The notes under the pieces were generated by a model that saw only the letters and a program-made list of their open reading frames with translations, searched no databases and had not been told where the DNA came from. The position numbers were made by a program, and so were the translations under genes. Shown piece after piece: positions 1,107 through 1,445 of a stretch of 6,982 bases of DNA. The first letter of the stretch is position 1. Each line of letters opens with the position of its first letter. The DNA is taken from the IMG/VR virus record IMGVR_UViG_2547132417_000010; one strand, written 5' to 3'. This DNA is from a virus. Taxonomy: Duplodnaviria > Heunggongvirae > Uroviricota > Caudoviricetes.

Positions 1107-1445
1107 TTATTCACACAACGCTATAGCTTCACTGAAAATCGGGCCAATATCAGCGCTTTCTAATGAATCGTTAGGGTCTTTTTTAAGAACTTCTTTTAAA
1201 TCTCGCCCTTCCATTTTTCCTGATTTGACGGCGTTTTTAGCCATACCGCTTAGGGGGTATCGTTCATCCGTATCAATGTCATAAACAAAAACGTAGTGAC
1301 TATTTACACAAGATACCTTTGCATGCTCAAAGGTCAGCGGCCATTTATCACCAAAAGATTTAATATCAATCTCTTTGAACTTTTCAGCGGCAAAGGTTGA
1401 GGAAGAGAGTGCAATACAGATTATTCCAAATAAAAACTTTTTCAT
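1107..1445 (-). CDS. Small secreted (periplasmic) protein of unknown function, 112 aa; accessory ORF between cI and int
   Basis: N-terminal signal peptide (MKKFLFGIICIALSSSTFA, then AEK; A-x-A-type cleavage site; no canonical lipobox). Two Cys in the mature part. Strong RBS (AAGGAG, minus strand) 6 nt before the ATG, overlapping the cI stop. Visibly A+T-richer than neighbours (by eye, not computed). The motifs KWPLTF, RYPLSG and C-terminal ...ALCE vaguely recall the enterobacterial YebY/DUF2511 family; unverified. Confidence 0.6.
   Translation of the reverse strand: MKKFLFGIICIALSSSTFAAEKFKEIDIKSFGDKWPLTFEHAKVSCVNSHYVFVYDIDTDERYPLSGMAKNAVKSGKMEGRDLKEVLKKDPNDSLESADIGPIFSEAIALCE

Follow-up and report, generated by a model that had tools for sequence, protein, structure and literature searches.

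In phage 186 (NC_001317) the repressor gene cI (22433-23011) abuts the integrase gene int (21423-22433), and the record, which annotates the promoters pR, pL and pE, presents the stretch as one lysogenic operon transcribed from pL. The P2-related Vibrio phage K139 has an equivalent PL operon of the order cI-orf2-glo-int, in which Glo carries the GenBank annotation 'periplasmic protein; involved in phage exclusion'; its exclusion role is taken here from that annotation and from secondary papers. In phages of the PSP3 type, a gene of the DUF2511/YebY family lies between cI and int. Hadley et al. 2021 (PMC8689200) pointed out homologues of YebY that are encoded between a recombinase gene and the gene of a phage CI repressor. 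In K139-like phages the cI-int interval is a reported defence hotspot (Rousset et al. 2022, PMC9122126), and iLund4u gives a third P2-like hotspot, which adjoins cI. Databases and publications thus already contain the gene (RefSeq names it), the name of its family, its relatives by fold and its position, and the variable cI-int region of P2-related phages has been reported as a hotspot before. Here we analyse one such gene in a 6,982-nucleotide stretch of Caudoviricetes DNA, IMG/VR record IMGVR_UViG_2547132417_000010, the whole of which we call the window. It is almost certainly cargo, an accessory gene that a PSP3-type prophage (Eganvirus, 186-like) would transcribe together with cI and int. 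The product is predicted to pass through the Sec pathway, to be cut after ~19-20 residues of signal peptide and to leave in the periplasm a ~92-residue domain of the YebY/MlbQ type with a probable Cys46-Cys111 disulfide.

The open reading frame (ORF) occupies positions 1107..1445 of the minus strand, from the ATG at 1445-1443 to the TGA at 1109-1107, stop codon included; it encodes 112 amino acids and is homologous to PSP3 gp28. These are exactly the coordinates given in an initial annotation of the window, which described the ORF as wedged between cI and int with a ribosome-binding site overlapping the cI stop. The sequence bears this out: along the coding strand the junction (1446..1457) reads GTT-TAA-GGAG-CAGTA-ATG, in which the cI stop codon (1455-1457) is fused to the Shine-Dalgarno sequence GGAG (1451-1454). 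The extended motif AAGGAG thus runs out of the TAA and ends 5 nt before the ATG. On the other side, a 23-nt spacer (1084..1106) separates the stop codon from the int ATG (1083), and a promoter and terminator scan found no terminator-like hairpin in it. An overlapping plus-strand ORF at 1066-1284 (72 amino acids) has no support and was taken as spurious.

The product is a member of the DUF2511 family. It scores 53.4 bits with Pfam PF10709, for which the gathering score is 21 (E=3.6e-14, alignment to positions 6-87 of the 87 in the profile), and over its full length it matches phrog_2950 of PHROGs (E=3e-47), which is annotated as function unknown; it has no match in NCBIfam. Its sole solved relative by sequence is Escherichia coli YebY (PDB 7N0J, E=1e-6). 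An AlphaFold2 model built on 38 homologues has a predicted local distance difference test score (pLDDT) of 87.8, with values above 90 across the mature part and ~55 for residues 1-20, and its fold begins at residue 22. The predicted structure has the YebY/MlbQ fold, an antiparallel four-stranded sheet ringed by helices. A search of the BFVD viral structure library gave no match at E<=1e-3, and there is therefore no annotated viral structural relative in that library. The initial annotation had guessed at DUF2511/YebY, correctly by the Pfam profile, the alignment with 7N0J and the fold. The other families it had proposed for testing fell away: lysozyme inhibitors (Ivy, MliC/PliC) were rejected on fold, and Cor/Llp receptor-blocking lipoproteins because the lipobox is absent and no Pfam or PHROG match to such families was found.

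Codons 1-20 (1386..1445, minus strand) encode a predicted Sec signal peptide, MKKFLFGIICIALSSSTFA followed by A, with cleavage expected after Ala19 or Ala20. The N-terminus consists of a positively charged MKK, the 13 hydrophobic or small residues FLFGIICIALSSS, and TFA before AEK, with small residues at -3 and -1. This n-h-c layout, which the initial annotation had recognised as a signal peptide, is read from the sequence, and the N-terminus is disordered in the model; all homologues have a K/R-rich, hydrophobic, small-x-small stretch before a conserved AEK. The lipobox motif [LVI][ASTVI][GAS]C was not found in the product: Cys10 stands in the context G-I-I-C, inside the hydrophobic region. 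Apart from this residue of the signal peptide, there are two cysteines, C46 and C111, both in the mature part as initially stated. They are near-invariant in the 38 homologues and align with C48 and C113 of YebY, which form a disulfide in the crystal structure of that protein, itself demonstrated to be periplasmic (PMC8689200).

Where intact, the ORF is a genuine conserved gene under purifying selection. In the mature part, comparison with the nearest allele (E. coli TK3888) gave rates of nonsynonymous and synonymous substitution (dN and dS) of 0.028 and 0.455 and a ratio omega of 0.06; 44 unsaturated pairs gave a median omega of 0.087. The full-length phrog_2950 match and the dN/dS of 0.06 argue that the ORF is not a chance reading frame.

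The alleles are strongly diverged. Among seven elements compared, int is 89-100% identical, cII with the apl-like gene 76-100% and cI 67-98%, and the DUF2511 gene ranges from 47 to 97%. Alleles differ most at residues 81-108, and they are mosaic: that of S1-CAM-04-C joins a signal peptide of the window type to a body of the SW9 type. At least three deeply diverged alleles occur within E. coli, and each allele type is found in several genera. Synonymous sites have reached saturation when allele types are compared with one another, and inside each type omega is 0.06-0.09. This points to old allele lineages that have been reshuffled by recombination and held by purifying selection, and we rejected positive selection as the source of their divergence on the same values.

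The initial annotation regarded the ORF as an extra gene relative to P2 and 186. This is supported by the abutting cI and int of 186, which are adjacent as it had said. It is not an unusual insertion, however, since cI-DUF2511-int is the standard layout of PSP3-type phages and of many prophages. A cI of ~285 amino acids with two CI-type helix-turn-helix (HTH) domains, a DUF2511 gene and int follow one another in the regions that we read in PSP3 (gp28), SW9, RCIP0057 and vB_EcoM-613R3, and in E. coli prophages at the same attachment site; SI22, SEN1 and Midge carry the DUF2511 gene according to tblastn, a match to the gene alone. The phage genes of the PSP3 gp28/phrog_2950 group (PSP3, SW9, SI22, SEN1, Midge, vB_EcoM-613R3 and Klebsiella phage RCIP0057) are the same 112-amino-acid gene, sharing with the ORF the cI-X-int position, the predicted signal peptide and the cysteine pattern. 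The ORF is a different allele, 47-63% identical to theirs and differing mostly at residues 81-108.

This arrangement is nearly constant. A CI-type gene lies directly upstream in 77 of the 78 IMG/VR loci that encode the phage DUF2511 clade, at a distance of 8-11 nt save in one locus, where a second cassette intervenes; int follows downstream in every locus whose contig reaches far enough. An identical protein is recorded in 241 blocks of the public assembly collection, and the nearest cluster representatives found come from Klebsiella, Enterobacter and E. coli (88-94% identity). A scan of genome contigs returned 3 species representatives only and added little on taxonomic spread.

The content of the cI-int slot varies among relatives. 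Using int as bait on IMG/VR we analysed 80 loci, which are not independent of one another; in 59 of them int is preceded by a CI-type gene. The slot of these 59 holds a DUF2511 gene in 17 cases, other genes in 21, and is empty in the remaining 21, counting as empty an interval of at most 75 nt or a cI that is split. Among the 12 loci whose int is at least 91% identical to the bait, 11 carry DUF2511 and one, with an int 94% identical (L015), is empty. The other cargo comprises at least nine unrelated families of 64-241 amino acids, none of known function. By our own hydropathy heuristic, a signal peptide, a lipobox or transmembrane (TM) segments occur in 8 of 9 of these families, the exception being a bPH_3+SHOCT protein. 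All are low in G+C content (GC), at 31-40.5% against 43-49.5% for int. PADLOC assigned no defence family to ten alternative cargo proteins, and one family gave weak WYL-domain matches.

Cassettes can also be stacked. A 134-amino-acid exported protein with two cysteines precedes DUF2511 in the order cI-134-aa protein-DUF2511-int in two loci (L099, 2570-3339, and L133), and in four others a 170-amino-acid bPH_3+SHOCT protein stands between DUF2511 and int (L128 and L130-L132; for example L130, 2501-3362). In complete E. coli genomes, 68 of which carry this int, intact DUF2511 was present in 4 of the 6 prophage regions read. E. coli E21, one of three genomes with an int ~89% identical, has the DUF2511 gene replaced by a 134-amino-acid exported protein. 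In E. coli Ecol_545 (L095, 3531-3859) DUF2511 is a pseudogene beside intact cI and int: a 10-bp deletion of the RYPL codons shifts the frame, and Cys111 has become Trp. The int of this lineage, 85.3% identical, occurs in at least 12 genomes. Variable cargo, as the initial annotation had suggested, is thus what the close relatives display. The ORF is an accessory gene, selectively maintained yet dispensable, one stackable cassette among many.

Two side observations concern the slot. Its second commonest cargo consists of exported proteins of ~110-130 amino acids with two conserved cysteines (L026, L032, L036, L037, L096 at 3580-3984 and L099 at 2570-2974). The IMG/VR members tested, L026 and L032, match phrog_3807 and no Pfam family, and the 134-amino-acid protein of the E21 type resembles this cargo by eye only. 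The phrog_3807-type proteins are another candidate periplasmic, disulfide-bonded factor. In addition, a second and more YebY-like DUF2511 lineage (123 amino acids; L056, 3624-3995) occupies the same slot next to an int 73% identical, and its protein is 29-32% identical to those of the main phage clade.

The ORF has a GC of 37.5%, and of 32.7% at third codon positions (GC3), against a window mean GC of 48.1%. It falls within the lowest 1.7% of all 339-nt windows, each window that low overlaps it, and the deviation is repeated in six relatives. The initial annotation had described the ORF as A+T-richer than its flanks. This stands against the window mean; of the flanking genes, the end of cI must be taken out, since the A+T-rich tract runs on into the C-terminal domain of the repressor (codons 181-287, window 1458-1778), where GC is 41% and GC3, at 29%, is as low as in the cargo gene. 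The compositional boundary therefore does not lie at the cI stop. Three findings had been named in advance as speaking against a cargo gene, namely universal conservation with a known core role, lack of a signal peptide, and a composition like that of the neighbours; with the windowed GC computed, none of them was made.

A consensus scan of cI-ORF-int, a weak kind of evidence, gave no promoter or terminator signal above shuffled expectation. From the lack of internal signals and the operon annotation of 186 and K139, it is reasonable to infer that the ORF is the middle gene of a co-transcribed cI-ORF-int lysogenic operon, and that it is expressed in the lysogen from the repressor transcript. 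The initial annotation had placed it there too, and the Shine-Dalgarno sequence coupled to cI agrees with this. By analogy with pL of 186, we expect the lysogenic promoter in the divergent switch region between cI and the apl-like gene (2319..2439, from the consensus scan and the 186 annotation) or overlapping the apl-like start. The hallmarks of a moron that were initially attributed to the ORF hold in part. Like classical morons, for example those of lambdoid phages, it shows presence/absence polymorphism, a deviant low GC and expected expression in the lysogen; classical morons have their own promoter and terminator, whereas none was detected here and the ORF would ride on the repressor-integrase transcript.

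What such a protein may do is a matter of comparison. We tentatively favour, as possible rather than probable, a factor that the lysogen makes and that protects it, or excludes phages, at the level of the envelope. The initial annotation had likewise raised exclusion and lysogenic conversion, and the argument for them is one of position and analogy. The protein would be produced continuously at a low level, and as a small periplasmic binding protein would alter how the envelope of the lysogen handles an incoming agent. The most probable case would be superinfection exclusion, in which the protein would bind a host or phage component exposed to the periplasm and so stop other phages at a stage of infection that takes place in the periplasm or at the inner membrane. 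A constant partner would be held by the conserved face (WPLTF, SCVN, RYPLxG, VKSGKxEG), and the allele-variable segment (~81-101) would reflect either a partner that varies or a balanced polymorphism of long standing. This reading is the best supported because the slot holds almost exclusively exported or membrane cargo, because of Glo of K139 and the reports of a cI-int hotspot, and because deeply diverged alleles persist side by side. Like the ORF, glo lies downstream of cI and directly upstream of int, and its product is a small protein with a signal peptide.

Several points weigh against an envelope or exclusion role. The likeness to Glo is one of position: Glo has no Pfam family and shows no sequence or profile similarity to the ORF product beyond the signal peptide, and we rejected homology with DUF2511 (hhalign probability 1.8%, with only the signal peptides aligning). 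As Glo is not homologous, the comparison is a works-like argument only. In PADLOC-DB v2 the ORF product has no defence family at E<=0.1, no alternative cargo family of the slot is a known defence gene, and the signal-peptide and TM calls for that cargo come from hydropathy heuristics. No experiment ties any DUF2511 protein to phage resistance, and both characterised homologues act otherwise, YebY modulating copper import and MlbQ being proposed to bind a lantibiotic. The allelic diversity is ancient, under strong purifying selection and with no sign of ongoing positive selection, and ordinary phage mosaicism could explain it. Co-transcription and periplasmic localisation are themselves inferred.

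The protein might instead serve a lysogenic conversion at the envelope that has nothing to do with phages or antimicrobials, such as fitness in colonisation, serum or stress. A product that is predicted to be exported, probably lysogen-expressed and dispensable for the phage would suit such a role, the prophage family is common in clinical Enterobacterales, and it was as a virulence factor that K139 Glo first came to be described (PMC4956436). No specific evidence points to it, however, and the family has no virulence link in the literature searched; we consider this somewhat unlikely.

Copper homeostasis is suggested by YebY, the third gene product of the copper-uptake operon yobA-yebZ-yebY, to which the ORF product is 27% identical. 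By YebY-like binding at the periplasmic side of the YebZ (CopD)/YobA (CopC) importer, the protein would damp copper uptake, altering copper stress and mar-dependent antibiotic tolerance in the lysogen. The comparison of 40 phage-clade sequences with 11 host YebY orthologues argues otherwise. The two clades have 10 invariants in common (G32, W35, C46, T59, Y63, P64, A69, P102, L110 and C111); 8 further positions are conserved within each clade with different residues, 17 are conserved in the phage clade only (WPLTF, SCVN, VKSGKxEG) and 19 in host YebY only (REEVML, NPSTL, DDPxNPGQKMSL). Because the conserved positions and motifs differ, we argue for a different partner surface, and the motifs of host YebY are not kept. 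The phage clade is also a compact separate subfamily: the DUF2511 family has 1751 representatives at 50% identity (E<=1e-3), and the phage clade is one of them at E<=1e-30. True orthologues, which share 55-80% of their residues with E. coli YebY, share no more than 21-31% with the ORF product, and the phage gene, flanked by cI and int here as in 77 of 78 related loci, never lies beside copC or copD. With its other conserved surface motifs and neighbours, the ORF is a phage-carried paralogue of yebY and not an orthologue. The hosts, moreover, possess their own yebY, and a single yebY deletion had no reporter phenotype. On these grounds a role in copper uptake is unlikely.

Some P2-like elements do lie next to the host gene. 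Of the 80 int-bait loci, 12 (within L065-L084) end beside host yebY orthologues, which lie ~350 nt past the 3' end of int on the opposite strand. They form a different P2-like group, with an int 56-63% identical and no CI-type gene upstream, so that a phage family with relatives carrying a YebY paralogue appears also to integrate beside host yebY; a Yersinia prophage adjoining a YebY-family gene has been reported (PMC12653942). We rejected capture of host yebY by aberrant excision as the origin of the phage gene, since this would put it on the att side of int and not between int and cI, and the 21-31% identity also argues against a recent capture. In a distant phylum, a contig assigned to uncultured Deinococcus (P0041; L180, 5001-5381) encodes a membrane-anchored DUF2511 protein with WPLTFE, immediately upstream of a 2141-amino-acid tape-measure gene in a phage-like structural module.

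Immunity to peptide antimicrobials is suggested by the second relative, MlbQ (PDB 2MVO/6QFP), a self-resistance lipoprotein of the Microbispora lantibiotic NAI-107. The ORF product would then sequester in the periplasm an envelope-targeting peptide, be it a bacteriocin, a microcin or a lipid II-binding compound. It is 21% identical to MlbQ, which differs from it as a lipoprotein with a long linker that is encoded with ABC transporters in a Gram-positive producer. No bacteriocin, ABC-transporter or immunity genes lie near the ORF, and no candidate ligand is on record. Lantibiotics normally do not enter the enterobacterial periplasm, and we hold MlbQ-like sequestering to be very unlikely. Finally, a core role in repression, integration or excision, for example as a cofactor of Int or CI, has in its favour the invariant position and the tight coupling between cI and int, but is scarcely credible and largely refuted, for the product is predicted to be exported and therefore not in the compartment of CI and Int, and the gene is missing in 186 and in many relatives whose CI and Int belong to the same types, replaced elsewhere by unrelated genes in the slot, and disrupted by a frameshift in one E. 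coli lineage with a prophage that retains cI and int.

The genes around the ORF show a recently degraded prophage copy. Upstream, cI (1455..2318, minus strand) encodes a PSP3-type repressor of 287 amino acids with two CI-type HTH domains (PF07022 twice, E=2e-52) and a CI C-terminal domain (PF16452). It is the first gene of the lysogenic operon and 84% identical to PSP3 cI. Its C-terminal domain is closest to the SW9/S1-CAM type (88-90%) and its N-terminal HTH part to the PSP3 type (93%), which indicates a mosaic gene with a breakpoint near the domain boundary. The switch region contains a promoter-like site on the plus strand, TTTACA-17-TATAGT, at 2348-2376. Downstream, int (303..1083, minus strand; Pfam Int_N and partial Phage_integrase) retains the first ~260 of 340 codons, the intact gene of the relatives L088-L092 encoding 340 amino acids. 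It is cut at 302/303 by the end of an insertion sequence (IS) of the IS3 family, with an orfA fragment (1..302, minus strand; HTH_Tnp_1, PF01527, E=2e-14). The end of an ISL3-family transposase follows replication gene A (window 6653-6982, breakpoint 6652/6653). Homology to the intact, 99.9%-identical relatives spans exactly 303 to 6652, so that two IS bracket the fragment, one cutting int and the other following gene A, with cI and the ORF left intact.

The window is 100% identical to part of CP189652.1 in GCA_051991285.1 (L093). The 99.9%-identical relatives (L088-L092) carry a complete-looking prophage beside host yfiB/dgcN. Between int and yfiB (11423-13776) they have a candidate two-gene defence system, a PtuA-like AAA ATPase with an HNH partner, that matches PADLOC PDC-M01A/B (E=2e-158 and 1e-141). 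In the E. coli relatives int directly adjoins yfiB in place of this pair.

At present the ORF stands as an accessory gene, already annotated, of a prophage family that is common. To this we add a count by which exported or membrane proteins predominate in the PSP3-type cI-int slot, a site for cassettes, and the recognition of its DUF2511 gene as stackable, maintained yet dispensable, and endowed with a conserved surface unlike that of host YebY. A wider proposal, which we regard as doubtful, is that the cI-int junction of PSP3/186-like prophages is a dedicated reservoir of small periplasmic and inner-membrane proteins, from at least ten unrelated families absent from current defence catalogues, that would protect lysogens at the envelope. 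DUF2511, the commonest cassette, would then be a new kind of exclusion factor reusing the YebY/MlbQ binding fold against a periplasmic step of phage DNA entry or, alternatively, would rewire host copper import. Such genes would escape defence-island searches because they are single, small and without enzymatic domains. If the protein acts like YebY, the prophage would tune the copper uptake of its host and, via mar, its antibiotic tolerance. If envelope protection is its role, the phage members of this large family, which has 1751 cluster representatives and no assigned function, would gain their first one, and cI-X-int would offer a compact, easily mined source of exported, envelope-level anti-phage or conversion genes.
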